The translations under genes were made by a program, and so were the position numbers. 15,734 nucleotides of DNA from a virus: the UHGV virus genome UHGV-0194232, one strand, 5' to 3'. The notes beneath the pieces are model-generated. The model had not been told where the DNA came from, did not search any database, and worked only from the letters and a program-made list of their open reading frames with translations. Positions 1,005 through 15,734 of the stretch are shown one piece after another (within the stretch, counting starts at the first letter, position 1; the number at the start of each line of letters is the position of its first letter).

Positions 1005-3416
1005 TCAGTCCGTCAGCTGCGGACAGTCATAAAACGTTTCTGATACTGATGCCGGGGACGGAAACTTCGTCATAAACGTCGACCGGCTTCCTGTCACCCG
1101 GTGGCAGTTTTTGAACAACGCGCTCAGGTTACAGCCTGCCGGGAATTTCTCTGTGAAAATATCGTTAATATCCATCTCCAGCGAATTACAGCCTGTAAAT
1201 GTGGCCATCAGGGAAATTGCGCTGGTTTGCGGAGCAATCAGGCCAGTCGGGATCCGGCGCAGCGCCACACACCCCTGAAACATTTTTTCCGGGTCGTTGA
1301 TCCTGCTTCCGGCAAACAACACCTCCTGAATTTCCTCCAGCGAAGCGCAGGACGCAAACAACATCCAGGTTCTGGTCAGACTGTTGCATCCGGCAAGCAT
1401 ATCGTCCGGCAGACGGCGAAGGGCTCTGCACCCCTTGAATGTCCCGACCATCGCTTTCAGCGAACGACACCCAGAAAGCATCCCGCCCCCGATACTCTCC
1501 AGCGACAGACAACCATCAAAAAGGTAATTGCACTGTTCGAGACGTACTGCATCCGCCAGCAGATTTTTCCCTGCTTTAACCAGATTTGTACACCCGCAAA
1601 ATACCGTCATACACGACGTCAGGTTTCTGGCGTTCATGAAAACAGCCTCTCCCACCGAAACCAGTGATGTACAGTTCTCAAAACACCGGTCAATCACCTT
1701 GCATTCCGGCAAACCGGCTAACAGGCGATCAGGTATATACTGCAACCCTGTACAACCACGAAACGTCATGGATAAGTTGCCAATACGATTTTTTATTCCG
1801 TCAAAATATCCCGCAGGCAACAGAGTGAGCCCACTGCATGACTCAAATGTCCGGTTAAAGGTTACCTGTAGCCGGTTTTCCCCTTCCCCCGGCAACAGTT
1901 CCGGCAGTTCCGACAGGGACTGACAGTTATAAAACGCCTCCGAAAGCGATGTTATTCTGCGGGTGGGGATACGCGGTGCCACGGCAAGTCGTTTGCAGCC
2001 ATAGAACGCCGATGTCAGACTTTCCAGATTTTCTGCCGGCTCCAGTAATCCCGCCGGCACTTCCGTCAGGGCTGCGCAGCCATAAAACAACTGAGAAAAA
2101 TTTGTCGCCATGCGGGCGGACAAAAACATCCCCTCCGGCACCACCGTCAGCCGGGTACAGCCATAAAACACGGCGTAAAACGACGTCACTGACGGGCAGC
2201 CGGCAAACAGATTTTCCGGCAAATCCGTCAGCGCAGTACAGCCACGAAACGCACGTGCAAACGTGGTGACCTTTTCCAGAGTGTCAAACGCCCCTGCATG
2301 AATTTTTCGCAGCGCATTCTGCGTGTTGGCAAATCCTTCCATACTGGTGCGGGTGCCACTGATTTCGATAATCTCAAGCAATGAACAGGTTACCGGTGAC
2401 GTACTTCGGTAGAACATCAGGCTTTCACAGTTCCTGACCGTCAGCGTCACTTCCTCCCCTGACGTCAGGGGGCGGGTGGCCATGACTGAATTCCCTGAAA
2501 TCGTGTAATCCCTGCCTGCCACACCATCGCCGTAATCAATGGTAAAATCGGTGTCTCTGCTGTCATCGATTAAGAACAGCGGTCTGCTCACACTGTCAAT
2601 GCGCACCACAACACGGGCTACCGCCACCACTTTTACAGCCAGCGTGGCAGCCACCCCGTTTGACGTCATGACACTCACTGTTGTGGCTCCGCACTGCCTG
2701 GCGGTCAGGGTGATGACATCGCCATCAACCTGTATATCAGCCACACGCTCGTCTGCCAGGTGGACAGTGAAGGAGCGGTCTTCGGCGATTAGTGGCAATA
2801 TCGTCACCTGTACGGACGCCGTTTCACCGGGTGCCAGTTGCACACTGTCCGGCGACAACAGGATCTGTGATGGCATGATTTTATTTTTCAGTTTTTCCGT
2901 CGCCGTCACATAACCATAACCATATCCGTTCCCCCGGCAGTTTCCATAAACGTGAATACTGAACCAGCTGCGCAGATTTTTGGCCCGTAGTACGGCATGT
3001 TTCAAATCCTGGTGGTCGCTCATCAGAACCGGCAGATCCTTCTGCTCCACATTCAGCCGGAAGGTATAAGGATCTCCCGGTGGCGTCTGCTCATACCACT
3101 CCACAATCTGCGACCGGAACGGACTGTCTGCCAGGGATTCATTCAGTGCGGCTTTTGTTCCCCTGTGACGATGGATATAGGCAGCACGTTTTATCGCTGC
3201 CCTTTTTTCCGCCTCTGTCCAGTGCTCATTCCAGGTATCCACTGACATTTCCCAGGCCAGCCATGGCAGCAATTCCGTCGGACATAAATCGGGATTTTTG
3301 ACATAGCGGATCAGACAGACCGCGATTTCCGCCAGCATATCACCGGCGGTACTGTCCACCACCCGCTCTGCCCGGCTGGCGCTGACCGGTAGTATGCTTC
3401 TGATTTTGTCATTCAT
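1005..3416 (-). CDS. I: Baseplate wedge protein, P2 gpI-like N-terminal domain fused to a C-terminal Ig-like domain plus BspA-type leucine-rich repeats (803 aa)
   Basis: ORF 1005..3416, ATG at 3416 overlapping the gpJ stop (ATGAATGA). The N-terminal ~175 aa align with recalled P2 gpI (NPDLCPTELLPWLAWEMSVDTW vs NPDTCPANLLPWLAWAFSVDRW; PPGDPYTFRL vs DPPGTFRL). Residues ~180-260 look like a bacterial Ig-like fold (LAPGETASVQVTILP...TVSVMTSNGVAATLAVKV). Residues ~340-803 carry about 20 repeats of an F-x-G-C-x-x-L-x-x-hP motif (AFRGCTALTDLP, VFYGCTRLTVVP, LFYGCAALTEVP, AFYGCKRLAVAP, AFYNCQSLSELP, TFRGCTGLQYIP ...). Confidence 0.85.
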   Translation of the reverse strand: MNDKIRSILPVSASRAERVVDSTAGDMLAEIAVCLIRYVKNPDLCPTELLPWLAWEMSVDTWNEHWTEAEKRAAIKRAAYIHRHRGTKAALNESLADSPFRSQIVEWYEQTPPGDPYTFRLNVEQKDLPVLMSDHQDLKHAVLRAKNLRSWFSIHVYGNCRGNGYGYGYVTATEKLKNKIMPSQILLSPDSVQLAPGETASVQVTILPLIAEDRSFTVHLADERVADIQVDGDVITLTARQCGATTVSVMTSNGVAATLAVKVVAVARVVVRIDSVSRPLFLIDDSRDTDFTIDYGDGVAGRDYTISGNSVMATRPLTSGEEVTLTVRNCESLMFYRSTSPVTCSLLEIIEISGTRTSMEGFANTQNALRKIHAGAFDTLEKVTTFARAFRGCTALTDLPENLFAGCPSVTSFYAVFYGCTRLTVVPEGMFLSARMATNFSQLFYGCAALTEVPAGLLEPAENLESLTSAFYGCKRLAVAPRIPTRRITSLSEAFYNCQSLSELPELLPGEGENRLQVTFNRTFESCSGLTLLPAGYFDGIKNRIGNLSMTFRGCTGLQYIPDRLLAGLPECKVIDRCFENCTSLVSVGEAVFMNARNLTSCMTVFCGCTNLVKAGKNLLADAVRLEQCNYLFDGCLSLESIGGGMLSGCRSLKAMVGTFKGCRALRRLPDDMLAGCNSLTRTWMLFASCASLEEIQEVLFAGSRINDPEKMFQGCVALRRIPTGLIAPQTSAISLMATFTGCNSLEMDINDIFTEKFPAGCNLSALFKNCHRVTGSRSTFMTKFPSPASVSETFYDCPQLTD

Positions 3417-4323
3417 CGGTTGTCTCCACCTTGTTCAGTGTGACTGAGCGACACCATGGAGCCTGCCCCATCACCGGAACAATATCACTGGCCGGCGATT
3501 TCAGTGCCACCGTAATCACCCCCGTCTGATGCAGGGCTCCGTCCATACCTGAGCAGGACGCCACAGAGCCAATCCGGTGCACACTGTCAGTGTAGGCCTG
3601 CAGCGCCTGGCGGGCATTTTTCATCACCAGTTCACCATCCAGCCCGTAGGGAATATGGATATCCGCCACCACATCGTAGGGAATAATTTCTGCCGCACGG
3701 ACGCTGACAAAATCCGTCAGGGGTCGAATTTCATCATCATTGACTGACGCCGCCACCTTATCCAGCAGGGGTTGTGATGCCGTACCATTTCCTGTACGCG
3801 CTAACACATAAAGAAAAACACGCCCTTCCTGTGAATGCGTTTCCGGTCCGTAGGCTTTCACATCCAGCACATCAGGATCGGCACTCTGTGCAAAATAGTG
3901 GTATGCGTTTCTCGCGCCTGCGGTGCTGAGTCGTGCCCATGACAACTGAATACGTTCGCGAAAAGCGTCATCATCTTCATACACCGCAGGCGTGGGCGGA
4001 ATAGTGCTGTCATCTGCCGGGGTAATCACCAGACGTTGCACCTGAAAATTCGCACCAATCTGATCCAGGTCGTTCCTCCGGGCGCTCGCAAGCAATACAC
4101 CCCGGACAGCATCATTGACCTGCTGGCGCATCAGCGCCACCCGAAAAGCCAGTGTCTCTGCCCATTTATACGCCGGATCGGATTCCACCAGGGCCGAAAA
4201 CAACGTGTCCAGCTCCTGATACTTCGCCACTATCTGAGTGACCAGCACAGCTGTGTCCGGCACTTCCACCGCATCCGGTACCGGTATCGCGGACAGATCA
4301 ATGATTGCCTGAGACGTTGCCAA
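3409..4323 (-). CDS. J: Baseplate assembly protein, P2 gpJ-like (304 aa)
   Basis: ORF 3409..4323 aligns over its full length with recalled P2 gpJ (IIDLSAIPVPD vs IIDLNQLPAPD; ITPADDSTIPPTPAV identical block). It starts with TTG at 4323, preceded by GAGGAG at about 7-8 nt; no in-frame ATG is nearby. Confidence 0.9.
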   Translation of the reverse strand: MATSQAIIDLSAIPVPDAVEVPDTAVLVTQIVAKYQELDTLFSALVESDPAYKWAETLAFRVALMRQQVNDAVRGVLLASARRNDLDQIGANFQVQRLVITPADDSTIPPTPAVYEDDDAFRERIQLSWARLSTAGARNAYHYFAQSADPDVLDVKAYGPETHSQEGRVFLYVLARTGNGTASQPLLDKVAASVNDDEIRPLTDFVSVRAAEIIPYDVVADIHIPYGLDGELVMKNARQALQAYTDSVHRIGSVASCSGMDGALHQTGVITVALKSPASDIVPVMGQAPWCRSVTLNKVETTDE

Positions 4324-4654
4324 TTTTTATCTCCTCGAGTCGAATCGTTTCCTGTGTCTCGTTGTTCACCCCAACAAGCGTCAGCCAGGCGCTTCCTTCT
4401 CCTGTCCATGTCACCTCCACCCGCCGGAGGGTCAGGCGGGGTTCCCAGCGCTCAAGGGCGGTTGCCGTTTCACGGACAATCCTCACCCGCGTAAAATCAT
4501 CCTGCGGGTTATCAAGCAGACTGAACAACCTGCTGCCGTATTCCCTGAGAAGTACCCGGCTGCCGACCGGTGTTGATAAAATATCGGTGACGGACTGACG
4601 CAGGTGTTCGTTACCGTGCAGATATCTGCCAGTGGCGGAATCAATACCAATCAT
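4298..4654 (-). CDS. W: Baseplate protein, P2 gpW-like (GPW/gp25 family), 118 aa
   Basis: ORF 4298..4693 contains ILSTPVGSRVLLREYGSRLFSLLD...ERWEPRLTL, matching recalled P2 gpW (ILRTPVGSRVMRRDYGSLLASMID...LKWEPRVTL). ATG at 4654 gives a P2-like length. An alternative GTG at 4693 overlaps the gpV stop (GTGA) but would place the hairpin/T9 tract inside the coding sequence. Confidence 0.75.
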   Translation of the reverse strand: MIGIDSATGRYLHGNEHLRQSVTDILSTPVGSRVLLREYGSRLFSLLDNPQDDFTRVRIVRETATALERWEPRLTLRRVEVTWTGEGSAWLTLVGVNNETQETIRLEEIKIGNVSGNH

Positions 4655-4663
4655 GAAATTTTT

Positions 4664-4690
4664 CCGAAAAAAAAACGCCGGTGCGGCGTT
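4664..4690 (-). terminator. Candidate weak intrinsic terminator or attenuator between gpV and gpW
   Basis: On the minus strand: a short GC hairpin (arms cgccg/cggcg at 4676-4680 and 4684-4688, 3-nt loop, extendable by two A:U pairs) directly followed by a run of 9 U (plus-strand A run 4667-4675). It sits immediately after the gpV stop codon. Confidence 0.4.
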
Positions 4691-5313
4691 CACATTTCCT
4701 GGTTAGGTTTACGGGTGGTTCCCCCGCTGTCGCCAGGGTGATCATGAGTATTATAAATTTCGCGAATTTTACTCATGCTACCGGTTTTGTCGGTGATCTC
4801 CTGTGAGGCACCGATATTGCCCAGAACCTGCGTATCGGCATTAATCTTCGTTTTTCCCTGCACAGTCAGGGTATCCGTGATTTCCACCGGACCGTCAAGC
4901 GTTCCCCTGCCGGTGATTTTATAGCTGCCGCCTTCAGCCAGCGTGATGGACAGGGCATTAGCCTGGCGGTCGTAACGGATCTCCGTTCCGGTATCAAACA
5001 AAATAACATGCTCGTGTTCACTGCCCGCCGGTACCGGAATCGCGTCAATGTTGGCCCCCGGATACACCCGACCATTACGCAGATCGCCCGCCTCCGATAT
5101 CACTGTGACCGCATCTCCTGGTGCCGGGTAATTACTGACCTGCATGTAACGCCCGGACTGCACCTGAATCCATGGCAACGGCGGCGAAAGCACATCTCCG
5201 ATATCCACCCGGACCATCACCGGGCTACCCGGGATCACCTCTTCCACCACGCCGCGACGGACCATGTCCGCCACCCTGCGGCGTAACTCTGCCACTTCAT
5301 CCGCCAGACTCAT
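4690..5313 (-). CDS. V: Baseplate spike / assembly protein, P2 gpV-like (207 aa)
   Basis: C-terminal HDHPGDSGGTTRKP matches recalled P2 gpV HKHPGDSGGTTGSP, and the N-terminal region aligns with the gpV start. ORF track extends to 5607, but the start was chosen at ATG 5313 (MSLADEVAELRRRVADMV) on homology and a GGAGGG Shine-Dalgarno upstream; the longer version would overlap the upstream gene by ~300 nt. Confidence 0.85.
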   Translation of the reverse strand: MSLADEVAELRRRVADMVRRGVVEEVIPGSPVMVRVDIGDVLSPPLPWIQVQSGRYMQVSNYPAPGDAVTVISEAGDLRNGRVYPGANIDAIPVPAGSEHEHVILFDTGTEIRYDRQANALSITLAEGGSYKITGRGTLDGPVEITDTLTVQGKTKINADTQVLGNIGASQEITDKTGSMSKIREIYNTHDHPGDSGGTTRKPNQEM

Positions 5314-5860
5314 CGCCAGTACCCTCCGCTTTCCAGATAAGACGATAATCCTGCACATGCTTTTTACCGGTTTCCGGTACTTTACCCAGCCAGACTTCCT
5401 GTAACGGCACACCTGCCGGAACCGCAAACGGATCTTCGCCGATCGGAATGTCCTGTTCAAAAGAAACACGGAAAACGATGTAGTCGTCCAGCAGCCGGTC
5501 GAAGGTATCCACCTCAGCATCGATAAAAACCGCCGGGTCAACGTTATCCAGCCCGAACGTGGCTCCATCAATCCAGTCAGATAAATCCATCGCCAGACAG
5601 CGGGCAAAAATCTGCGGTTTTGGCACGTTTTCCGTCTTCCCGGCCCGGTCTGTCACCACAAACAGATCGCATTTCAGCGTGACCCGTGTCTGCCCGTCGG
5701 CAAACTGAGCCTTGTCCCATCCGGGTACATCCACAAACACGGCAGGCGTCACCAGTTGCGTCACTTTTTCCGGGTACTCATCGGCATCTTCCACCCAGGG
5801 AATTTGTTTCAGACTGTCAATCACTGCCTGATGCCAGGTTCCCATCATCAATGGTTCCAT
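5297..5860 (-). CDS. Hypothetical virion protein (187 aa), possibly tail-completion / head-tail joining
   Basis: ORF 5297..5863; ATG at 5860 overlaps the upstream gene's TGA in a TGATG arrangement, with AAGGGG/GGAG upstream. Same strand and tight packing within the structural operon. No family recognised with confidence; only a weak resemblance to P2 gpR. The position matches P2 R/S just upstream of V. Confidence 0.55.
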   Translation of the reverse strand: MEPLMMGTWHQAVIDSLKQIPWVEDADEYPEKVTQLVTPAVFVDVPGWDKAQFADGQTRVTLKCDLFVVTDRAGKTENVPKPQIFARCLAMDLSDWIDGATFGLDNVDPAVFIDAEVDTFDRLLDDYIVFRVSFEQDIPIGEDPFAVPAGVPLQEVWLGKVPETGKKHVQDYRLIWKAEGTGDESGG

Positions 5861-6582
5861 CACTCCATCCCCTTAAATACCCGGAATTTCAGTTCATGCT
5901 CAAAATTTTTCAGGATCAGTGCTTCCGCATCCGGAAAAACAAAATCCTCTATACGGTTCAGCATGGCTTCATAAATATCAATTTCTGCTTCGCGCACCCT
6001 ACGTCGTCCGGATGCCTGCCGAACCAGGACAGTCTTACGCCGTGAAATGCGTCCGCTCCGGTTTTCAGACTCAAATTCATTAATGAAAGCCTCTTCACCT
6101 GACCAGGTAGTGACCGGTATTGCCTCTCCGGCAGGTTTAAAACGAATCTCCGGCGCTTTCCTGCGGCGGGAAGCCGGTGCAAAACGCCCCCGTTCATCGC
6201 GCAACTGATGGCGTTCGCCGCGTCGCCCCCCACTGATGCGTCCGCGCAGATCACGTACTTTGATGGCGTTCAGGCCAAACCACACCTTTGCCTCATCAAA
6301 CTCATCGCCATTTCGACGAATGACAAAAGCATTCAGGACACGGTTTTTGATCATTTTCTGGCTGCGTGGCGCAACCTGTTTTTTAAACTCTGCCATGGCC
6401 TTCATCCGCAGTGCGGACGCGGCTCTTTTCAGCGCCACACCCCAGGCTTTACGGATCTGACTTTTTGAACCACCCAGTTTCGCGATAATTTTCAGCACCT
6501 CATCCTCGTCAATATCGACGACGAGGTTTCGTGCCAGCCGTCGCTGCCGGGCACTGCTTCGCTCATGCTCTCTGACTGCCAT
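5860..6582 (-). CDS. Hypothetical virion protein (240 aa), Arg/Gly-rich basic centre
   Basis: ORF 5860..6642; first ATG at 6582 (MAVREHERSS...), which still overlaps the FII 3' end by 20 nt, with only a weak Shine-Dalgarno. Contains a strongly basic segment (RGRISGGRRGERHQLRDERGRFAPASRRRKAPE). No confident homolog recalled. Confidence 0.5.
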   Translation of the reverse strand: MAVREHERSSARQRRLARNLVVDIDEDEVLKIIAKLGGSKSQIRKAWGVALKRAASALRMKAMAEFKKQVAPRSQKMIKNRVLNAFVIRRNGDEFDEAKVWFGLNAIKVRDLRGRISGGRRGERHQLRDERGRFAPASRRRKAPEIRFKPAGEAIPVTTWSGEEAFINEFESENRSGRISRRKTVLVRQASGRRRVREAEIDIYEAMLNRIEDFVFPDAEALILKNFEHELKFRVFKGME

Positions 6583-6967
6583 AACGTTTACTCGGTCGGA
6601 CAGGGGCGGCAGGTGTACTTCTTCCGGGTTCTCCCCGCGCAAGAGTAATGGTAATCACACCATGACCCGCAGTACCCGACTCATCCCAGCCGGGATCGAC
6701 CACCTGGTAGGGTTCGCCGTGGATCATGACCCTGTCATATTTTTTCAGACCGGCGGCCCATGTGCTCCGGGTAAATAACACGGGCGCAGTATCACGAATT
6801 TCGCCACTGCCAGTGTTCATCCCGGTGTTATCTGCCGGGGCATCAAAAACGGCACGGATTTTTCTTTCCGTGCCGCCCGGATATATGCTGATTTCCGTCC
6901 CCATCGTATCCAGGATGATGTTATCCGCATCACTCATGGCCTGATCGAACAGATTATCAAACATCAT
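6563..6967 (-). CDS. FII: Head-tail joining (head completion) protein, lambda gpFII-like
   Basis: N-terminus MMFDNLFDQAMSDAD matches recalled lambda FII MADFDNLFDAAIARAD. Its ATG overlaps the FI stop (TAATG). Confidence 0.8.
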   Translation of the reverse strand: MMFDNLFDQAMSDADNIILDTMGTEISIYPGGTERKIRAVFDAPADNTGMNTGSGEIRDTAPVLFTRSTWAAGLKKYDRVMIHGEPYQVVDPGWDESGTAGHGVITITLARGEPGRSTPAAPVRPSKRYGSQRA

Positions 6968-7332
6968 TACTCCCGAATTTTTTCTGCCAGACCGTCCGCC
7001 AGCAATGCAGGAACTGCGGCCTCATTAACCAGCACAACACTGGAGGCCCGGGCGAACATCAACATTTTTCCCGTCACAGCATCACAGGCTGGCATATGCG
7101 CTGTTTTCAGCATGCGCACCCGGACGAGTCCCCGCTCAGAATGCATCCCGTCGCCGGATACGTCCTTGCCCACCTCTTCCGCCCCTGTATCCTCCGCATC
7201 GAAGCCAGCGGCCTCCTCTTCCCATTCCGCCAGGCGCTGCTCAAGATCGGCTTTTGAACCTGAAATATCTGCTTCACGTCCCAGAATCACTGCCAGTTCC
7301 TGCAAACGTTCAGTCATCTGCTCTTTTGTCAT
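6967..7332 (-). CDS. FI: DNA packaging accessory protein, lambda gpFI-like (121 aa)
   Basis: MTKEQMTERLQELAVILGREADISGSKADLEQRLAEWEEE resembles recalled lambda FI (MTKDELIARLRSLGEQLNRDVSLTGTKEELALRVAELKEE). ATG at 7332 with GGGAGAG upstream. Position matches lambda order between E and FII. Confidence 0.75.
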   Translation of the reverse strand: MTKEQMTERLQELAVILGREADISGSKADLEQRLAEWEEEAAGFDAEDTGAEEVGKDVSGDGMHSERGLVRVRMLKTAHMPACDAVTGKMLMFARASSVVLVNEAAVPALLADGLAEKIRE

Positions 7333-7350
7333 CACATCTCTCCCGTACGC

Positions 7351-7382: not shown

Positions 7383-8411
7383 TTATTTCACCTGAACCAC
7401 CACAAACGCGTCAGGATCCGGCAACACCATCAACGGCGCAGACTGCGTCATGGTATATTCGCAACCAGGATCACCCACCTCCAGCCAGTGTTTTGGATAA
7501 CGAATTGCAGAGGTGATCCCTTCACTCAGCGCCTGATTATCCTGAATGGCACCATAACAACGGACGCCTTCCGCCTGAGTATTCCCCAGAATCAGTGTAC
7601 CTTCCGGCAGATAACGCTGTTCATCCCCGTTTTCGTCAACATACGTTGTCTTCGCCACAACAATGGCCAGATCACCGTAATACCCCTTAAAAGAGACCAC
7701 TGAGCCCAGATCTTTCAGCGCGGTTTCCAGTTCCGATTTTGAACCACGACGGGTATCCAGTTTTTCACGGAAAAGCTTAAAGCCATTCAGCATACGCCAG
7801 ACCGTGCCATCCATAATCGCGATATTGATGGTCCCTGAGGCAAAATCGCAGTACGCATCCAGATCGTGCGTTGGATCAAAGGTGTCAGCATTCTGCTGTG
7901 ACCATTCGCGTCCGCCAGCCTGCGTAATGTTATTGACGGCAGAGCGCCCAAAATCCACTTCCACCGTCTCAAACTGTTCCCCGCTCATGGTGTACTTCCC
8001 CTGCAGAACGGCACTGACCGCCTGCATTTCTTCCACCTGCACAATCGCCTGCTCTTCCTGCTTCAGGTTGTCAGTCAGAATACGCAGGCGGCGGTAGGCC
8101 GGGTCATTAAGACGGGCCGGATCTTCCCCCGGCAGACGTTCCACTGCCTGCTGATAATCAAAGCGGTGTTTTGGTTTTACATAACCGGGACGTAACACGC
8201 GGGTTTCACCACCACGGCTGCGCAGCACTTTGCCTGACACCACCGGAGACACATACGCCGCAACCGGTGTTTTGCCGGTAATTTTATCCAGCATGACTTC
8301 CTGAGTATGGAAAGTGATCGTGCGACGAAAGAACAGCTCCAGAAACAGCGCACGAAATTTCACTTTCTGCTCGGTGTACCCGAGTAACTGACGCGTGGTA
8401 AATAACCCCAT
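7383..8411 (-). CDS. E: Major capsid protein, lambda gpE-like (342 aa)
   Basis: Full-length collinear similarity to recalled lambda gpE, including identical blocks AIVQVEEMQAVSAVL, LRPGYVKPKH-type motif, DTRRGSKSELETA and TQSAPLM. Length 342 vs 341 aa in lambda. Confidence 0.95.
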   Translation of the reverse strand: MGLFTTRQLLGYTEQKVKFRALFLELFFRRTITFHTQEVMLDKITGKTPVAAYVSPVVSGKVLRSRGGETRVLRPGYVKPKHRFDYQQAVERLPGEDPARLNDPAYRRLRILTDNLKQEEQAIVQVEEMQAVSAVLQGKYTMSGEQFETVEVDFGRSAVNNITQAGGREWSQQNADTFDPTHDLDAYCDFASGTINIAIMDGTVWRMLNGFKLFREKLDTRRGSKSELETALKDLGSVVSFKGYYGDLAIVVAKTTYVDENGDEQRYLPEGTLILGNTQAEGVRCYGAIQDNQALSEGITSAIRYPKHWLEVGDPGCEYTMTQSAPLMVLPDPDAFVVVQVK

Positions 8412-8480: not shown

Positions 8481-8816
8481 TCAGGCGTGGCTGATGGCAC
8501 TTCCCACAAATGCGTTGGCTTTTTTCACCGCATCCACAGAGTCAGGCCAGACCAGCGACTCAGTGGCAAACGTACCGCTTTTGTAGTACGTCAGTGTGGG
8601 TTCTGTTCCGGCAAGCGCCAGAGCCAACACGCCCACTGCCGTTCCGGCTTTCTGACCATCCCATGCCACCAGTTTGCCGGTGGCGTCATCCAGCATCAGT
8701 GGCGTCAGTGCAGGCGTGGCAGCACTGATACCACTGGTGGCTGTTGCGGTATGCGCCGGATCGCTTCCGGCAAAAATATGCACATCCGCGCGCTTTTCTG
8801 TGGTTGTTTTAATCAT
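8481..8816 (-). CDS. D: Head decoration protein, lambda gpD-like (111 aa)
   Basis: [22 protein letters not shown] and YKSGTF motifs are collinear with recalled lambda gpD. AGGAGA Shine-Dalgarno 8 nt upstream of ATG 8816. Confidence 0.95.
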
Positions 8817-8854: not shown

Positions 8855-9565
8855 TTACGGCATACTCATCAGCAGATCTTCTTCTCCGTGCCCGGCAGTT
8901 CCGCCTCCGGAAACCGCACTGGCAGCATGCTGTGCCATAAAGCGATCAAAAAGTGTTTCCTGTGACGGTTGCGATGCCGCCGGTGCGGCTGCCAGCAACG
9001 TTTTCGCCTGCGCCACCGTCATTCCCGGTTGTTCTGCCAGTGCCTGTGCAAGTTGCTTGCGCCCTTTCGCCTCCGGCAGCGCCATAATCTGATCGCCGAC
9101 ACTTGGAGAACCGGCAACCGGTGCCGCCGCCAGTAACGTTTTTGCCTGGTCAACGGTCATTCCCGGCTGTTCAGCCAGCGCCTGCGCGAGTTGTTCACGC
9201 CCTTTAGCTTCCGGCAACGCCATAATCTGATCGCCTGTGCCTGCAGCACCGGCAGCAGGGGCTGCCGCCAGAAACGCTTTCGCCTGCTCCACCGTCATCC
9301 CCGGTTGACCTGCCAGCATCTGTGCCAGTTGCTCACGCCCCTTTGCTTCCGGCAGCGCCATAATCTGATCACCCGTGCTGTCAGTACCGGCAACCGGCGC
9401 AGCTGCAAGCAACGTTTTCGCCTGCTCAACCGTCATTCCAGGCTGACCTGCCAGCATTTGCGCCAGTTGCTCGCGCCCTTTCGCCTCCTGACAATTCAGG
9501 ATCCCCATCACGCGCTGATTTTCCTGGGCCACCGCTTCAGCAACGGTGAGATTTTTAACAGTCAT
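8855..9565 (-). CDS. Nu3-like scaffolding protein, in-frame nested within the 3' part of C (236 aa)
   Basis: Internal ATG at 9565 (MTVKNLTVAEAV...) is preceded by a strong AAGGAG Shine-Dalgarno at about 5 nt. By analogy with lambda Nu3, which is translated in-frame from inside C. The region contains the MGILNC and GMTV motifs seen in the lambda C/Nu3 C-terminus. Confidence 0.5.
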   Translation of the reverse strand: MTVKNLTVAEAVAQENQRVMGILNCQEAKGREQLAQMLAGQPGMTVEQAKTLLAAAPVAGTDSTGDQIMALPEAKGREQLAQMLAGQPGMTVEQAKAFLAAAPAAGAAGTGDQIMALPEAKGREQLAQALAEQPGMTVDQAKTLLAAAPVAGSPSVGDQIMALPEAKGRKQLAQALAEQPGMTVAQAKTLLAAAPAASQPSQETLFDRFMAQHAASAVSGGGTAGHGEEDLLMSMP

Positions 9566-10471
9566 TGCATTCTCCTTCGTAACAGAGTCATTCAGTGCAG
9601 AAACCATCACTTCAACGGCATCTGCAGCATTAATCAGTTGATCAGCCAGGCCTGCATCAATGCCTGCCTGACCGTCATAAACGGCAGCCTCAGTATTCAT
9701 CACCGCCTCTGAACTCAGCCCCGTATAAAGCGCCACTTTGTCGACAAACATCCGGCGGGCCTCATCAATACGGCGCTGAAAATCTGCACGCACACCTGCC
9801 GGCAATGCCTGAATACTGTTGCCGTCAACCTTGTGCTGCCCGGAGTAAATCAGCGTGATATCCACCCCTTCCTGTGCCAGTTGTTTCTCGTAACTGGTGT
9901 GCGCCATCATCACACCAATCGAACCAATTTTTGCCGTCTGCGTGACCAGCCGACGCGTACAGGCTGCCGCCAGCAACATGGCGGCTGAACAGGCCATATC
10001 ATTACACAGCGCCCACACGGGCTTCTGTTCCCGCAGGCGGTAAATCATGTCAGCACAGTCAAACGCCCCGGCAGCCTGACCGCCCGGGCTGTCGATATCC
10101 AGCAAAATGCCGCGCACATCCGGATCATTCACCGCCATCTGAAGACGGGCCGTCAGGCCGTCATAGCCTGTCATGCCGGAGTAAGGGCGCAGGGTACCCA
10201 GTTTATGCACCAGCGTGCCGCTCACCGGCAGAATGGCGATGCCATTCTTCACCTGGTAACTCTTTGCCGGACGCTGACCGCCCGCCATATAGTCAGTCAC
10301 AGCCAGTTGCATACCATCAGCATCAAGCTGAACAGCCTGCTGAGGAACGGCAAGGCTGCCGGCCCCCATCTCTTTACCCAGCGCGCAAAAGAAAACCCGC
10401 GCATAGGCGGGTTCCAGTAAAAGCGGCTCATTAAATGCCATGGCGGCAATATGCGATAAATTACGACGCAT
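8855..10471 (-). CDS. C: Prohead protease / minor capsid protein, lambda gpC-like (S49 peptidase family), 538 aa with an expanded repeat-containing C-terminus
   Basis: N-terminal ~300 aa align with recalled lambda gpC (HIAAMAFNEPLLLEPAYARVFFCAL vs HIASMAFNEPLMLEPAYARVFFCAL; VTQTAKIGSIGVMMAH; ITLIYSGQHKVDGN). The ATG at 10471 overlaps the portal stop. It is about 100 aa longer than lambda C because of the tandem repeats. Confidence 0.9.
   Translation of the reverse strand: MRRNLSHIAAMAFNEPLLLEPAYARVFFCALGKEMGAGSLAVPQQAVQLDADGMQLAVTDYMAGGQRPAKSYQVKNGIAILPVSGTLVHKLGTLRPYSGMTGYDGLTARLQMAVNDPDVRGILLDIDSPGGQAAGAFDCADMIYRLREQKPVWALCNDMACSAAMLLAAACTRRLVTQTAKIGSIGVMMAHTSYEKQLAQEGVDITLIYSGQHKVDGNSIQALPAGVRADFQRRIDEARRMFVDKVALYTGLSSEAVMNTEAAVYDGQAGIDAGLADQLINAADAVEVMVSALNDSVTKENAMTVKNLTVAEAVAQENQRVMGILNCQEAKGREQLAQMLAGQPGMTVEQAKTLLAAAPVAGTDSTGDQIMALPEAKGREQLAQMLAGQPGMTVEQAKAFLAAAPAAGAAGTGDQIMALPEAKGREQLAQALAEQPGMTVDQAKTLLAAAPVAGSPSVGDQIMALPEAKGRKQLAQALAEQPGMTVAQAKTLLAAAPAASQPSQETLFDRFMAQHAASAVSGGGTAGHGEEDLLMSMP
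8978..9487 (-). repeat. In-frame tandem repeat, 138-bp unit (46 aa), about 3.7 copies, inside the scaffold domain of C/Nu3
   Basis: Protein unit ALPEAKGREQLAQ(M/A)LA(G/E)QPGMTV(E/D/A)QAK(T/A)(L/F)LAAAP(V/A)AG...GDQIM occurs four times. At DNA level the landmark gccataatctgatc recurs at 9083, 9221 and 9359 (period 138). Copies are about 80% identical by eye. Lambda C has a single copy of the corresponding segment. Confidence 0.85.
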
Positions 10472-12032
10472 CGCCTTTTCCTCCCGTTGTCTGTCGGATC
10501 TGCTGCTGAAACGTATCCTTTATCCAGATGGGGCGGGGAAGACCGGCAGCCTGTCGCTCCTGGCTTTCACGCAGTTGCTGGCGGAAAATCTCCTGATAGT
10601 CATCTCCCATCAGGGCCAGCTCCTTCTCGTATGTACTCAGGCCACCTTCAATACGCATCACCGCCTCCTGCACCTCCTTAAGGCCATCAATCGCCATGCG
10701 GCCGGCACCAATCCACTCGGCACGACACCACCCGGAACGGGCCTCCCAGAATGAGAAACGGGATTTCGGCGGGCGGATCACACCGCGAATAAGGGCTTCC
10801 TCCAGCCAGCAGGCAAACATCTGTGATGCCAGACGGCTGGCCACAAATTTTCGTTTCCCCATAAAATACCGCCACGACTCATTGGCGGATGCCCTGGCAC
10901 TGGAATAACTGACCTGTGAATAATCACGGGAAAGTTGCTCATAGGACACGCCCAGTCCGGCAGCAATGTAACGTAACAGCGCCTTTTCCAGTTCAGAGAA
11001 ACCATTATCCGCATTCTGTGCTGTCTGCAGATTCAGTGAATCCCCCGGATAAAGATGCGGAATACGAACCCCACCCATCTTTACCGTATTGGTGGCGTAA
11101 TAGCGCGCATACCCTTTCATGATGGTGTTCAGGGGATTTTTACCGCCATCTCCCACCCCGGCGATATATTCAAATGCTTTTTCCGAATCCAGTGTGGATT
11201 CAATCGTCGCGGCATACATCGCCCGCACCACCGCCGACTGCAGTTGCGTGGCCTGTAGTGTGTCGAGCATCTTGAGGCGCTCCATCACGGAATAAAACTG
11301 GTTGGCCCCGCGCGTCTGTCCGTCCTCCTGCGGCTGAAACACATGGATCATTCCCGGTCGCCCGGAGGGCAGCGTCGCCGCAATCCGTGTCCAGTTGCTG
11401 ACACCGTAGCCAGGCCAGTCATCGTCCTGAACATGATAAGCCATCGCCTTTCCGTGACGGTTGATTTCCACTCCGGCACGCATAAAACGATCGCCGATGC
11501 CATAACCGGGCGTGCTGACGCGCTTCGGACTGATGGTCTTGAATTTTGTTCTGAATAATGACGTGGATTCCGTATCCCATACGGGCTGGACAAAAATTTC
11601 ACCGTTAAAAGTATGGACCCCCACCCCTTCACGAATAAATTCGGTAAACGAGCGACGCCCTTCCACATCCATCGAACCAAATACCGGATCGCAATATTCC
11701 ATCCACGCCGCCTCCACATCTTCAATAAAGGCATGCGAATCAGCTTCTGACATCCCCAGCCAGCGCCAGTTGGGTCGGTAGCTCAGGCGAAACATGTGAC
11801 CGACGATATGGTCTTTATGAATTTCCACAGCATTTGCGGCAATACCGTTGTTACGGACCAGATCGTCCGCACGGGCGTTACCCAGCTGAATGGAAGGTAA
11901 GAGCGCCACATCAGCACTTTCCGGTGCTGGCAACCATTCAGCCAGTTGCCCACCGAATCCGGAGCCGCCGCCGGAATATCCCATACTCTGCCGCAAAGGT
12001 TGCCCGTGAAGATCCACCAGTCCCCCGCTCAC
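10461..12032 (-). CDS. B: Portal protein, lambda gpB-like (523 aa)
   Basis: Collinear with recalled lambda gpB (GGGSGFGGQL, GNARADDLVRNNG, FRTKFKTISPKR, DGQTRGAN, LRYIAAGLGVSYEQLSR, GRMAIDGLKEVQEAVM). Starts with GTG at 12032, with AGGAG about 8 nt upstream; overlaps the W stop. Confidence 0.95.
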   Translation of the reverse strand: MSGGLVDLHGQPLRQSMGYSGGGSGFGGQLAEWLPAPESADVALLPSIQLGNARADDLVRNNGIAANAVEIHKDHIVGHMFRLSYRPNWRWLGMSEADSHAFIEDVEAAWMEYCDPVFGSMDVEGRRSFTEFIREGVGVHTFNGEIFVQPVWDTESTSLFRTKFKTISPKRVSTPGYGIGDRFMRAGVEINRHGKAMAYHVQDDDWPGYGVSNWTRIAATLPSGRPGMIHVFQPQEDGQTRGANQFYSVMERLKMLDTLQATQLQSAVVRAMYAATIESTLDSEKAFEYIAGVGDGGKNPLNTIMKGYARYYATNTVKMGGVRIPHLYPGDSLNLQTAQNADNGFSELEKALLRYIAAGLGVSYEQLSRDYSQVSYSSARASANESWRYFMGKRKFVASRLASQMFACWLEEALIRGVIRPPKSRFSFWEARSGWCRAEWIGAGRMAIDGLKEVQEAVMRIEGGLSTYEKELALMGDDYQEIFRQQLRESQERQAAGLPRPIWIKDTFQQQIRQTTGGKGDAS

Positions 12033-12238
12033 AGTCGTACTCCTGCAGGGCCACGGCGACGACCGGACATTCCAAGCGCACTTTCAATTTCCTCAATATA
12101 TCGCCGTAATTCATTAATCGTCGCCCGCGAATACTGTATCTGTCGTCCGTTCTTACTGACAGAAGCCACAGCACGCCCGATCATCAGTTCATGCAGCGCC
12201 CGACGCGCTTCGCAAAGCATCTCATGTGTATAAATCAT
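12029..12238 (-). CDS. W: Head-tail connector / DNA stabilisation protein, lambda gpW-like (69 aa)
   Basis: ARRALHELMIGRAVASVSKNGRQIQY...RRRGPAGV matches recalled lambda gpW ([26 protein letters not shown]...RRRGPAGF). ATG at 12238 with GGAGGA 6 nt upstream. Confidence 0.85.
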   Translation of the reverse strand: MIYTHEMLCEARRALHELMIGRAVASVSKNGRQIQYSRATINELRRYIEEIESALGMSGRRRGPAGVRL

Positions 12239-12241
12239 CAC

Positions 12242-14158
12242 TTATCCTCCACTCAGTGCAGCCGCAATTTCTTCCAGACTCATATCATCCTCATCCTGCT
12301 CATCTCTTCGTGCCCGGGCCAGTGCCTCAAGGTCCAGTTGCCATCGTTGAACTGAAATACGCAGGGCAGCATAGGCATATACCAGGCAGTCGAGGGCTTC
12401 ATTGCGTCGCCCTTTTTTATCCCACAGCAGTTTCACCCTGCCATTAACCACCTTCTCCACCAGTTCTTCCGCCACGATTTGACGCGCCTCTTCTTCCGAA
12501 AAAATGTCCGGGTTATCCGGAAAGCGGAAGGTATACGGGGCGGCTTCACTGGCAGAAACCACCGGCAGGGCAAAACGGGCGTACAGCATTTCCTTGACGG
12601 TATCGGAGCCCACCTCACACAAAAACACACCACGCTGGTTACGCTTTTTGGGCATGGTGATCACCGGCTTGCCGTACACCGATGCCCCTTTAATGGGAAG
12701 CACAAAAAAAGTGCCGTGTTTTCTGGAACGCTGATACACAATGTCCTGGTCAATACCACCGGTATCCCAGCAGACACGGGAAATGGAAATTTCAGTACCG
12801 TCAGCATGGCGGTATTTTTTCCGGATCACCGCATCAACACGTTTAAGGGTGTCCTCGTCTTCCGGTCGCCCCATGATAATTTGCTTGTCAATCAGAAAGG
12901 CTTCTTCGCCAGGAGCCCAGCCCCAGACATAAATTTCATAGCGATCTTTCTGGGAGTCGATCCCGGCGGTCAGGTAAACCACCCGCAGGGGAACCTGCGC
13001 GCCATAGTGACAGACCTTTTCCAGCAATAACTCGAAACTCAGCTTTTCTGCCACAGCCTCTTCATAGGGCTCCCCGAGTGTGGTGTTAATAAACGTCTTG
13101 ACGCCGTTCGGATCCTTCAGCGCATCCAGCCAGTCGTAGACAATCTGCACCCAGGTGGTGAACGGACTGTACGCCGTCCAGATGTGGTACGAGATTGAGC
13201 GTGGTGGCGGCATCTCCTCATCACCGGCGCTGTAAAATGTCAGGCCGTCACGCGTCCACATCCCGGTATTGTCACAAATCCAGCGTCCGTCGGTCTGGTC
13301 AAGTTCCGACTGCCGGATCACACAGCCATTATGTTCACACAGGTAATACACCGTTTCCGGTTTACCCTTCTCCCATTTCAGGCCAAACGGCGTCGCATCA
13401 TCGCCAAACTTCAGATACTGGGTCTCCCCGCAATGAGGGCAAGGGACATAAAACCGCATGAAATGCGCAGATTCATTCGTGGCTTTCTCAATCTGGCAGG
13501 AGCCTTTAATTTTTGGCGTTGAGCCGCGTATGGATTTAGGCCATACCGAGCCTTCGATACGTTTATCGCCAAGCAACGTCGGCGAACCTTCTTTTTCCAC
13601 ATCCGGTTCAAACGAGGAGAGTTCGTCATAGCAGACCACATCCACAGATTTTTCACGGTAGTTTTTAGCAGCGGCACCACCCAGGCACCAGAAACCCACG
13701 CCGGAGGAAAAACGCTTCAGGGTGAGTGTATTATCGCGGTGCTTTCTTCCGAACCATGGAGCCAGCTCCAGCAATGCAGGGACATCCCTTATCGTTGGCT
13801 CAACATGAGATTTCATGAAATCTTCTGCAGCAGAATCTGTTGGCTGAAAAAGCAGACTGTTACGGGATTTATGCTCAATAAAATAAGCCTCCACCCCCAA
13901 CAGCATTTTGGTGTAACCAACGCGCGCCGATTTAATCAGATTAACAGTGCGGATCCGGTCATTTCCCATGCTGTTCATAATGGCGATCTGAAACGGCAGT
14001 GTTTCCCATTGCCCGGGGGTATATGAAGACTCTTTCGGCAGATAATAATGTCGATCAGCCCACTGAACTGTCGTCAGTGGAACCGGAATATTGAGAGATA
14101 AAAGCCCTGTGACTATCGCACCGGCTGCATTAGCTGCCTTCTGTGCGTCTGAAATCAT
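12242..14158 (-). CDS. A: Terminase large subunit, lambda gpA-like (638 aa)
   Basis: Extensive collinear identity with recalled lambda gpA ([156 protein letters not shown]). Start chosen at ATG 14158: it has an AGGTGGA Shine-Dalgarno and gives a lambda-like N-terminal length. ATG 14200 (ORF track) has no Shine-Dalgarno. Confidence 0.95.
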
Positions 14159-14678
14159 CAATCCACCTGCCCACGTTTTCACCGGCTTTAGCTGCAACAT
14201 TGGAGGCTTTTGCGATTTCAGTTTTCACCACATCAAGGTGTGACGGTGAAATATCCGGATATTTACGCTGTAATGTCAGCGGCACTCGTACAAGTATTCC
14301 CGAAATCTCCTGAGCCACACGTTGCAGAATGAAGGTAAACAATTCCGTTTCCAGCACCAGCCCTTCTTCGCGGGCATTTTTCAGCTCCTGTGCGTCAGCC
14401 TGTGCTTTTGTGAGCCGGTAGCGTTCATAGTCAATGGTGCCGGGTTGTAAATCTGATTCTGCAGCCGCACGCAAGTCTTCCAGTTCTTTGCGGAGCTTTT
14501 CGTTTTCGATATCTTTTTCCCGCTGCGCATACCACTCAATGGCTTCTGCAGTATTGAACATGGCCTCGATGCCTTTGCCTCCCCCCGACAAAATTCTCAG
14601 CCCCTGACTTTGCCAGCCAGTGATTGTTCTGACATCGCACTCAAAAATCTCCGCCAGTTTCTTTTTGTTAACCTTCAT
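14130..14678 (-). CDS. nu1: Terminase small subunit, lambda gpNu1-like (182 aa)
   Basis: [12 protein letters not shown]...[10 protein letters not shown]...GGGKG...IENEKLR...[28 protein letters not shown] matches recalled lambda Nu1 nearly collinearly. ATG at 14678 with GAGGG about 9 nt upstream. The 3' end overlaps the A start, as in lambda. Confidence 0.95.
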
Positions 14679-14699
14679 GTCACACATCCCTCACAAAAA

Positions 14700-15127: not shown

Positions 15128-15520
15128 TTACTCACGAATCAGGCGAGCACTCTTACTATTCATTTCAATACGCGAATACTGCGGTTTACCATAAATGATG
15201 TCTGTCATTACGAACACCTCACCCGGCTGCAGTTCAACTGCACCTTCCGGTAATTTCATACCAGCAAATACCGGACAGCCCGGATGGCGATCATCTTCTG
15301 TTGCTTCCAGCATTGACTCACCAAACCACGCCGTTGTGGCGCGACCATCAGCAGCCTTGTAGTGGATCAAGTACTGGTTTTCGCCATCCGCATACTGCGC
15401 GCGAGCTTTAACCTCACCCCATTCATCACTGATGCGCATCTCCACCAGTTGTGACAGTTCAAACTTAAACGGAACAGCCACAGCACCAATTACCATTGGT
15501 TTGTCTTCTTTCTTTTCCAT
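15128..15520 (-). CDS. Hypothetical protein (130 aa) at the cos-proximal right end of the phage genome
   Basis: ORF 15128..15571; start chosen at ATG 15520 (MEKKEDKPMVIG...) because of an AGGAG Shine-Dalgarno 7 nt upstream; the upstream ATG at 15571 lacks one. Same strand as all other genes. No homolog recognised. Confidence 0.55.
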   Translation of the reverse strand: MEKKEDKPMVIGAVAVPFKFELSQLVEMRISDEWGEVKARAQYADGENQYLIHYKAADGRATTAWFGESMLEATEDDRHPGCPVFAGMKLPEGAVELQPGEVFVMTDIIYGKPQYSRIEMNSKSARLIRE

Positions 15521-15734
15521 TATCTTCTCCTGATATCGAAGCCCGTCACCGCCCCGGGCGCTGATCAACATTTGAGTTTTCGCGGCGACAGAAAGAATTT
15601 ATTTTATTGAGTAGCCACAAACACAGAATTTCATGCTTTCCGGACGCCGGCGCATCCTTCATTTTTCAGCAAAATATTCTGCTCTTACAGGCGATCAGTT
15701 CTGCATACACTGCCGAACACCGTCGACAATTTCA

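Follow-up and report, generated by a model that had tools for sequence, protein, structure and literature searches.

A putative gpZ-family tail completion protein and a putative R2 pyocin collar-type tail terminator at the head-tail junction of an Escherichia coli prophage

To our knowledge, the tail completion protein gpZ of phage lambda has never been visible in lambda maps. Among the proteins to which it can be compared, 80alpha gp51 caps the DNA end within the neck (PMC11661146) and SPP1 gp16.1 is required for routing the DNA into the cell (PMC11099176). The location of tail completion proteins (TCPs) is disputed, T5 p143 lying on the side of the tail tip (PMC11784142), and none of the myophage neck structures shows a TCP (PMC11784142, PMC11661146). 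As for tail terminators, in myophages and in contractile injection systems their C-terminus is extended and pairs with the sheath (PMC11915804). Proteins of both kinds are considered here for a junction found in the window, that is, the whole stretch of 15,734 nucleotides of virus genome UHGV-0194232 that was analysed. The host of the two genes in question, ORF-A and ORF-B, is an E. coli prophage, a temperate myophage, and the features of the locus are the following.

4690-5313, minus strand: gpV-type baseplate spike gene (PHROG 9992 "baseplate assembly protein", E=1.5e-24)
5297-5860, minus strand: ORF-B, 187 aa, pI 4.25, probable tail terminator in the family of the R2 pyocin collar PA0615
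5300-5440, minus strand: C-terminal extension of ORF-B (residues about 141-187), reaching past the 131 aa of lambda gpU
5860-6582, minus strand: ORF-A, 240 aa, pI 10.94, probable gpZ-like tail completion protein
6148-6252, minus strand: Arg-rich core of ORF-A, residues 111-145, with 11 Arg and 5 Gly in 35 residues
6563-6967, minus strand: FII-type head-closure (stopper) gene (Pfam Phage_attach, E=1.6e-12; PHROG 82 "head closure Hc1")
12029-12241, minus strand: gpW-type head-tail adaptor gene (Pfam gpW, E=2e-23)

An earlier note, made from the DNA letters alone, had reported two reading frames, both of which lie on the minus strand, one encoding 240 aa and the other an acidic protein of 187 aa, and had placed them between FII and V. 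Both points hold, the gene upstream of the pair being recognized by Pfam as Phage_attach and the one downstream by PHROG as a baseplate assembly protein. The latter, which has a weak, sub-threshold match to Pfam Phage_base_V and whose homologue is named "baseplate assembly protein V" in RefSeq, opens the P2-type tail block, and its ATG overlaps the end of ORF-B. On the head side, the portal matches Pfam Phage_portal_2 (E=9e-95) and the gpW-type adaptor completes a lambda-type neck composed of portal, W and FII, in which the FII-type stopper is presumed to be the docking partner of ORF-B. The lambda-like gene order runs beyond FII through the gpZ-like gene, and ORF-B occupies the position of gpU.

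ORF-A and ORF-B are genuine genes under strong purifying selection, with dN/dS values of 0.086 and 0.084, respectively, against a 93.5%-identical E. coli copy; an antisense ORF at 5686-6045 gives 3.7 in the same comparison. ORF-A is read from ATG 6582, in a frame that stays open up to TTG 6642, and the 20 nt by which this ATG overlaps the FII gene (stop at 6563-6565), already pointed out in the earlier note, are confirmed. The start is backed by RefSeq annotation and by the conservation of the N-terminus, which extends down to a Salmonella homologue of 65% identity. ORF-B starts at ATG 5860, which overlaps the TGA of ORF-A in an ATGA junction and has a Shine-Dalgarno-like aaggggatggagtg directly 5' of it; Met1 is conserved and Pro3 invariant throughout the family, and the RefSeq start lies four codons downstream. 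Two other candidate starts, TTG 6642 for ORF-A and Met5 for ORF-B, are disfavoured by the N-termini of homologues. In the RefSeq E. coli genomes examined, both products are named "hypothetical protein", and NCBIfam assigns neither to any family. Searching a phage collection by megablast with the region returned zero matches, and a direct sequence search of the PDB with both proteins gave nothing useful, only a chance match to a transporter.

The profile evidence supports ORF-A as a divergent TCP (TCP/Ne1) of the gpZ family. The protein matches PHROG 27 ("tail completion or Neck1") with E=4e-26, and lambda gpZ falls in the same PHROG (E=3e-69). In Pfam, ORF-A has no family at E<=0.1 and hence lies below the gathering threshold of Minor_tail_Z (PF06763), and its close-family profile alone leaves lambda gpZ undetected, so that the link between ORF-A and gpZ is transitive. 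Run against 1.8 billion representative proteins, the ORF-A family profile, A3, returned 193 relatives. Minor_tail_Z is matched at E<=0.001 by 45 of the 115 aligned relatives, lambda gpZ among them, and its Pfam cut-off is exceeded by 5/9 relatives examined individually; P0059, for instance, is found by A3 with E=2.7e-35 and scores 34 bits with Minor_tail_Z against a cut-off of 23.9. Furthermore, when lambda gpZ was withheld from a second-round profile, that profile gave it 43.4 bits, compared with 9.9 for the highest-scoring of 2,000 shuffles. The absence of a confident match to lambda Z or U, as claimed earlier, stands in sequence for U, which resembles ORF-B at the level of fold only, but not for Z. 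When both family alignments were compared by hhalign with the single sequences of P2 gpR, P2 gpS and lambda gpZ, the probability was below 1%, in what is a weak test, one side being a single sequence. Searches of the PDB with the ORF-A family profile yielded only spurious matches (designed repeat proteins and a ribosomal protein), and lambda gpZ itself is absent from the PDB.

The position of the gene agrees with the family assignment. In the window, ORF-A follows the FII-type head-closure gene and precedes the terminator gene, and at another locus (L060) a Pfam-positive Minor_tail_Z fills the same slot, in the order FII, Z, collar homologue (109 bits) and V-W-J-I. This Minor_tail_Z protein is short (193 aa) and stands beside the collar homologue and V-W-J-I-sheath, which rules out a division into long, insert-bearing TCPs for contractile tails and short, Pfam-positive ones for lambda-like flexible tails.

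ORF-A contains 37 Arg in total. Its centre, described earlier as extremely Arg/Gly-rich, is strongly enriched in Arg (11/35), but its Gly content is only moderate (5/35). The Arg-rich core belongs to a central stretch of low prediction confidence, residues about 105-200 (5983-6270), where ORF-A carries insertions that shorter gpZ relatives lack: in gpZ-like sequences of <=200 aa, column occupancy is near zero at ORF-A residues about 120-129, 133-145, 168-171 and 176-179. In the alignment, the Arg-rich insert of lambda gpZ (lsrrrrrkkgqrssl) falls at the same loop as that of ORF-A, and the Arg-rich centre is, as judged from sequence, an enlarged form of the basic loop that gpZ has at the same place. 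A TCP would be expected to have long helices at both ends, with an apical loop or beta region between them. For ORF-A, the structural model predicts helices at residues 40-69 and 195-237 with pLDDT of 80-93 and a middle of about 50, and these helical ends with a low-confidence middle may correspond to the arrangement reported for 80alpha gp51 and for predicted gpZ (PMC11661146). Of the Foldseek check proposed in the earlier note, the part concerning ORF-B leads to terminators, as detailed below, but for ORF-A it retrieved nothing significant in the PDB and only weak matches in BFVD (best E=0.039; HK97 gp10-like at E about 0.7-1.5), an outcome better explained, in our view, by the poorly modelled centre than by a novel fold.

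ORF-B has no match in Pfam, its PHROG (1072) is labelled "unknown function", and its family, which has no Pfam model, comprises 78 database relatives, all unnamed. The family profile A5, built from 24 sequences, matches PDB chain 6u5f_A, "Collar PA0615", with E=5.4e-21 (78 bits), profile positions 3-171 aligning with chain residues 4-165 of 171; a first, narrower profile gave E=8e-5. The ORF-B model, of moderate confidence (pLDDT 62.8, pTM 0.60), retrieves the same chain as its best Foldseek match (E=5e-7, TM 0.58/0.64), followed by the terminators A-1(L) gp7, that of Mu, T5 p142 and lambda gpU, and its significant matches are tail terminators only. Under the A5 profile, lambda gpU scores 4.5 bits, a value that shuffled controls also reach. 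Profile and model together support ORF-B as a probable tail terminator homologous to the R2 pyocin collar. Its C-terminal extension aligns with the C-terminus of PA0615, including a conserved LG-x-P-x-x-G-x-x-H-x-x-DY motif, and this arm, modelled at low confidence, is a candidate for sheath binding. The neck, tail-terminator or tail-completion roles that the earlier note had suggested from position are borne out by the membership of ORF-A in the gpZ family (PHROG 27) and by the homology of ORF-B to PA0615.

The block formed by FII, a gpZ-like gene, a collar-like gene and V is found in phage isolates of Hafnia, Vibrio, Burkholderia and E. coli, in the Wolbachia phage WO and in some 40 prophages of Pseudomonas, and in the loci examined the ORF-B-type gene is always directly upstream of V. 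Phages carrying the pair are Wolbachia phage WO, Hafnia phage yong2, Citrobacter phage Chris1, Vibrio phage Valp1, Burkholderia phage vB_HM795 and Escherichia phage vB_EcoM-569R10, with identities between ORF-B and its homologues of 23% to 53%. In every named phage whose flanks were read, the tail-completion gene and the ORF-B homologue are adjacent and directly upstream of V, and yong2 and Valp1 also have an annotated FII-type gene upstream of the two; Chris1 is counted here for having both proteins. The gene neighbouring the ORF-B homologue of WO is annotated "minor tail protein Z", and the homologue in WOcauB1 is described as "similar to hypothetical protein of Pseudomonas aeruginosa". The bridge between a lambda head and a P2-type tail envisaged earlier is supported as such, but it is not peculiar to the prophage of the window, the block being old and widespread.

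The Pseudomonas loci, which were found using the PA0615 sequence (taken from the profile alignment) as query, allow the two genes to be considered apart. A gpZ-like gene lies immediately upstream of the PA0615 relative in 41/43 loci, and lambda-type terminase and portal genes are present further upstream in nearly all of those 41. One exception is the pyocin locus (L015), which is devoid of a gpZ-like gene, terminase and portal; in the other (L055), the collar match is only partial. Since the pyocin locus has neither the gpZ-like gene nor the head genes and nearly all of its relatives have both, the TCP appears to be tied to the head or to the DNA, and not to tail structure.

Family membership, gene order, selection and distribution were shown for both proteins, and fold class for ORF-B only. 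With a probability of roughly 0.85, we consider that ORF-A and ORF-B constitute the tail-side half of the neck of a myophage that joins a lambda-type head to a P2-type contractile tail. By homology with PA0615 and other terminators, ORF-B most likely forms a hexameric ring, which would cap the last ring of the tube, anchor the last ring of the sheath through its C-terminal extension, and offer a surface that receives the FII ring of the filled head. ORF-A, by analogy with gpZ, SPP1 gp16.1 and 80alpha gp51, most likely joins the tail late and would occupy the neck channel as one copy or a small number of copies, where it would serve productive head-tail joining, or the correct positioning and exit of DNA, and not the building of the tail. 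It is on homology and analogy of this kind that we infer the stoichiometry, virion location, binding partners and mutant phenotypes of both proteins. More tentatively, and with the odds somewhat against it, ORF-A could be a long-form TCP whose enlarged Arg-rich apex, in the neck of a phage with a contractile tail, clamps the cos end of the DNA. If so, the fact that the R-type pyocin in particular has lost its gpZ-like gene, when about 40 related prophages of Pseudomonas retain theirs, would show that the TCP class works only at the DNA/head interface, and would also suggest that R-type pyocins descend from the lambda-head/P2-tail lineage and not from P2 proper.

The earlier idea that the basic ORF-A protein might be DNA-associated fits present knowledge of TCPs, and because the tail-completion model already includes contact with DNA, DNA binding competes with that model only if it is unrelated to the neck. 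Taken in this strict form, as a DNA-binding or ejected internal protein that has no role in neck assembly and whose basic centre is a nucleic-acid-binding tract, the proposal would account for the very high pI, the Arg-rich tracts and the low-confidence, possibly disordered centre of the model. It is nevertheless extremely improbable, given that both the N- and the C-terminal parts of ORF-A show profile-level homology to the gpZ family and that its slot between FII and the terminator is constant across many genera. It is also improbable that ORF-A is a TCP by descent that resides outside the neck, with a single copy placed on the baseplate or the tip of the tail. T5 p143, which belongs to the Ne1/TCP class, has been placed as a monomer on the tail-tip side, and TCPs are absent from all myophage neck maps, but the T5 authors doubt that p143 typifies other tail completion proteins (PMC11784142). 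Moreover, gpZ-type predicted structures resemble 80alpha gp51, which lies in the neck touching both the DNA and the tape measure protein (PMC11661146), and in the Pseudomonas loci an ORF-A-type gene is retained only where heads are present.

We regard it as very improbable that ORF-A forms an external sheath terminator ring, along the lines proposed for P2 gpS and T4 gp15, and that ORF-B caps the tube only. The R2 pyocin, whose locus has no counterpart of ORF-A, has the PA0615 collar as its sole cap; the neck map of the P2 virion contains the portal, gpL and gpR only, and it is gpR that binds the sheath (bioRxiv 10.64898/2026.09.14.750843); and the gpZ family, to which ORF-A belongs, also serves non-contractile tails that have no sheath. 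The proposal draws on a review that reads P2 gpS mutants as longer-sheathed and names gpS the sheath terminator (PMC11784142), and on the features that ORF-A and gpS have in common, both being basic, adjoining the terminator gene and carrying the PHROG label "tail completion or Neck1"; similarity between the two proteins was, however, not detected by hhalign or by HMMs scored against shuffled controls.

The link to a solved structure, that of PA0615, allows the whole ORF-B family to be named tail terminators, and the clade of ORF-A can be named gpZ-type tail completion proteins. The junction of such lambda-head/P2-tail hybrids follows a lambda-style order (W, FII, Z), which closes with a terminator of the pyocin type. 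What is filled is an annotation gap, with further members of known protein kinds, which will not surprise phage structural biologists. The genes of the neck block travel together among Enterobacterales, Vibrio, Burkholderia, Pseudomonas and Wolbachia, and the pyocin, in which the collar is retained and the completion protein is absent, offers a natural experiment that bears on TCP function.

Among the described systems, P2 also has an acidic terminator and a basic completion protein ahead of V-W-J-I-H-G, and the pairing of a basic with an acidic protein is reflected in the pI values of lambda Z/U (12.0/4.05) and P2 S/R (10.5/4.5). The earlier note found no match to P2 R/S, and we agree: gpR and gpS do not rise above shuffled controls with the ORF-B and ORF-A HMMs, the window's proteins have no Pfam match to P2_Phage_GpR or Phage_tail_S, and hhalign stays below 1%. 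The P2 proteins belong to PHROGs 65 and 26, and the ORF-B/ORF-A pair to 1072 and 27; the order in P2 is R and then S, whereas in the window the completion protein precedes the terminator. In addition, P2 gpR docks on the adaptor gpL and does so with no FII-type stopper (bioRxiv 10.64898/2026.09.14.750843). The gpU-type terminators share with ORF-B an acidic character and a gene placed after that of the tail completion protein, and lambda gpU, Mu gpK (gp37), T5 p142 and A-1(L) gp7 share its fold class (Foldseek E of 7e-7 to 1e-4), although they have no sequence-level similarity to it under the A5 profile; compared with gpU, ORF-B has about 55 additional residues, located at the C-terminus.

Lambda gpZ resembles ORF-A in its PHROG (27), in its slot after FII and before the terminator, in being strongly basic and in having an Arg-rich loop at the matching position. 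It is shorter, with 192 aa against 240 aa, and identical to ORF-A in 27/157 columns of the profile-guided alignment. Unlike gpZ, ORF-A has about 35-45 additional, mostly basic, central residues, and it serves a contractile tail where lambda gpZ serves a flexible one. The named phages with the pair have their ORF-B homologues annotated as hypothetical, and their head types vary, several of them using a ClpP-capsid fusion and not the lambda C/D/E set. As for PA0615 (PDB 6u5f, 6u5j), the pyocin to which it belongs is headless, so that its collar has neither an FII partner nor an adjoining tail completion gene, and identity to ORF-B is about 19-20% in the structural alignment. The two proteins are nonetheless of similar size (171 aa and 187 aa), their homology spans the full length, and the genes of both immediately precede the V spike gene of a P2-type tail cluster.

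Every real gene in the window lies on the minus strand, and they are listed here in 5' to 3' order on that strand.

Genes of the window (coordinates, strand, product)
14130-14687, minus, Nu1, the first in this order
12242-14200, minus, gpA terminase
12029-12241, minus, gpW
10461-12032, minus, lambda-family portal
8855-10471, minus, S49 protease
8481-8816, minus, head decoration protein D
7383-8411, minus, major capsid protein E
6967-7335, minus, FI
6563-6967, minus, FII
5860-6582, minus, ORF-A (240 aa)
5297-5860, minus, ORF-B (187 aa)
4690-5313, minus, V
4298-4693, minus, W
3409-4323, minus, J
1005-3416, minus, long gpI fusion
running off the left end, minus, gpH-like fiber, start only

The window is an E. 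coli prophage region. Matches at 93-98.5% identity to the 1,286-base segment spanning ORF-A and ORF-B occur, always on the chromosome, in 78 of 5,426 complete E. coli genomes, and in the best of these the genes downstream of I (fiber, fiber assembly, sheath, tube, chaperone, tape measure, U, X, and D) form a P2-type tail. The gene content on either side therefore places ORF-A and ORF-B at the boundary of the head and tail modules, where P2 has gpR and gpS.

Several other features of this region were observed. A 147-aa ORF upstream of Nu1 (15128-15571, minus strand) has no Pfam family, and the prophage of E. coli 401651 (L001) carries a 130-aa hypothetical protein at the corresponding place. 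The FII protein has 134 aa, against 117 in lambda; its Pfam domain stops near residue 98, and its basic, Pro-rich C-terminal tail (EPGRSTPAAPVRPSKRYGSQRA; 6563-6640, minus strand) is the part overlapped by the start of ORF-A. The gpI-type baseplate protein (1005-3416, minus strand) reaches 803 aa, against 176 in P2, because its Tail_P2_I domain is joined to BspA-type leucine-rich repeats and a Big_2 Ig-like domain. It matches PHROG 9915, a group of unknown function (E=6e-247), and may provide the baseplate with a second module for receptor binding. In the E. coli 401651 prophage (L001 7636-9408), the tail gene X is placed between U and D, presumably as in the R2 pyocin cluster; in P2 (L002 1510-1713) it adjoins L, the gene for capsid completion, and is upstream of the lysis genes. 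The same E. coli prophage adjoins a truncated ydfJ and a DinI-like remnant, with hokD near its other end (L001 5897-7317 and 40886-41041); these flanks presumably resemble the K-12 Qin prophage site, of which it may be an intact occupant.

The coordinates and lengths of ORF-A and ORF-B, the 20-nt overlap with FII, and the basic and acidic character of the two proteins are all as the earlier note described them, and of the extreme Arg/Gly-richness that it saw in the center of ORF-A, the arginine holds and the glycine is only moderately enriched. Both genes are under purifying selection, with dN/dS values of 0.086 (ORF-A) and 0.084 (ORF-B) against a 93.5%-identical copy. An antisense ORF overlapping both (5686-6045, plus strand, 119 aa) gave a dN/dS of 3.7 against that copy, and is thus not coding. 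ORF-A probably starts at ATG 6582, since a Salmonella homologue of 65% identity shares its N-terminus and RefSeq annotates this start too. For ORF-B the likely start is ATG 5860, which is preceded by a good Shine-Dalgarno sequence and overlaps the ORF-A stop as ATGA; in the family Met1 is conserved and Pro3 invariant. The RefSeq homologue begins at Met5 and has 183 aa (window 5848-5860; L001 20001-20552; L010, a further related locus, 1501-2052), probably four codons too late, given the conserved Met1 and Pro3, the strong Shine-Dalgarno sequence, and the ATGA overlap.

By its sequence, ORF-A belongs to the gpZ family of tail completion proteins, in which it is new and divergent. It had no Pfam match, but almost its entire length matched PHROG 27 ("tail completion or Neck1"; E=4e-26), a group to which lambda gpZ also belongs (E=3e-69). 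A profile of 20 homologues found 193 matches among 1.8 billion representative proteins; Pfam Minor_tail_Z is matched by 45 of the 115 aligned full-length relatives, lambda gpZ among them, and some strong profile matches clear Pfam's own cut-off, such as P0059 (profile E=2.7e-35; 34 bits against a cut-off of 23.9). Lambda gpZ itself was undetected by the close-family profile alone, and scored 43.4 bits with a profile of the enlarged set built without it (best of 2,000 shuffles, 9.9 bits). The homology to gpZ is therefore real, though transitive. Compared with gpZ-like proteins no longer than 200 aa, ORF-A carries insertions at about residues 120-129, 133-145, 168-171, and 176-179, and at the same loop lambda gpZ bears an Arg-rich insert of its own. 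The predicted model, whose terminal helices are long and confident and whose central part is poorly predicted, agrees with the terminal helices and apical loop or beta domain described for 80alpha gp51 and the predicted gpZ structure (PMC11661146); fold searches with it gave nothing significant, so the structural argument is one of secondary structure only.

ORF-B, a tail terminator, belongs to the family of PA0615, the R2 pyocin collar. It has no match in Pfam or NCBIfam, its PHROG (1072) is without function, and its 78 database relatives are all unnamed, none with a Pfam domain. A profile built from nine close relatives matched PA0615 in the C-terminal half (E=8e-5), and when it was widened with tblastn relatives from Vibrio phage Valp1, Burkholderia phage vB_HM795, Escherichia phage vB_EcoM-569R10, and Wolbachia phage WO, the match became full-length (E=5.4e-21, 78 bits). 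PA0615 was also the best Foldseek match (E=5e-7) of the AlphaFold model, which is of moderate confidence (pLDDT 62.8), and next in rank were terminators from cyanophage A-1(L), Mu, T5, and lambda (gpU); by sequence, the family profile did not detect gpU, Mu gpK, or P2 gpR. Lambda gpU has 131 aa against the 187 of ORF-B, whose surplus is C-terminal and aligns with the C-terminus of PA0615. Such an extended C-terminus occurs in terminators of myophages and contractile injection systems, where it pairs with the sheath (PMC11915804), and P2 gpR similarly has both the adaptor and the uppermost sheath subunit as binding partners (bioRxiv 10.64898/2026.09.14.750843).

The suggestion that the two proteins have neck, terminator, or completion roles was therefore correct, ORF-A falling in the gpZ family and ORF-B in the PA0615 collar/terminator family, while their uncharacterized status reflects an annotation gap and no biological novelty. 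A ring of ORF-B would most plausibly bridge the lambda-type head and the P2-type tail, one face docking FII and the other capping tube and sheath. This bridging arrangement is ancient and widespread, and not specific to the present prophage. The block of FII, completion protein, collar homologue, and V recurs in many places, among them a metagenomic contig and a Rouxiella prophage whose head is of another type. In Hafnia phage yong2 (L009 6925-17479), sheath, tube, chaperone, tape measure, U, X, and D come directly after V, and W, J, I, and the fiber only after D, so that the block stays whole although the other tail genes are rearranged; in Rouxiella (L005 9661-15244), unrelated reverse-strand genes, including a dCMP deaminase, lie between V and sheath/tube. 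The core of completion protein, collar, and V is kept in the Vibrio, Burkholderia, and E. coli phages and in WO, among whose records an FII-type gene is annotated upstream in Vibrio only. The gene beside the collar homologue of WO is annotated "minor tail protein Z", and at a further locus (L060) a Pfam-positive Minor_tail_Z completion protein has a neighbor scoring 109 bits on the collar profile.

A basic completion protein paired with an acidic terminator is the norm, with pI values of 10.9 and 4.25 for ORF-A and ORF-B, 12.0 and 4.05 for lambda Z and U, and 10.5 and 4.5 for P2 S and R; the window has the lambda order, completion protein then terminator, whereas P2 has R then S. A scan with PA0615, one genome per species, gave 44 loci, nearly all from Pseudomonas, and among the 43 longer than 5 kb a gpZ-like gene lies immediately upstream of the collar homologue in 41. 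Nearly all of these 41 carry terminase and portal genes of lambda type farther upstream, and V-W-J-I on the downstream side, usually with sheath and tube after it. These relatives (Pseudomonas L017-L058) sit in what look like full prophages. The exceptions are the R-pyocin locus (L015, 80% identical to PA0615), without gpZ-like gene, terminase, or portal, and L055, with a partial collar match only and likewise no gpZ-like gene. The gene contents of L015 and the other loci therefore mean that the tailocin retained its terminator when the head and the completion protein were lost, which suggests that R-type pyocins derive from this lambda-head/P2-tail hybrid lineage. That loss argues that the completion protein acts where head and DNA meet and not in building the tail. 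Lambda particles without gpZ look normal and are non-infectious. The location of tail completion proteins may vary, T5 p143 being at the tail tip, and none is seen in any myophage map (PMC11784142). A role at the head/DNA interface fits the published findings on lambda gpZ, on SPP1 gp16.1, which has roles in head-tail joining and DNA routing (PMC11099176), and on 80alpha gp51, which caps the DNA end and binds the N-termini of the tape measure (PMC11661146).
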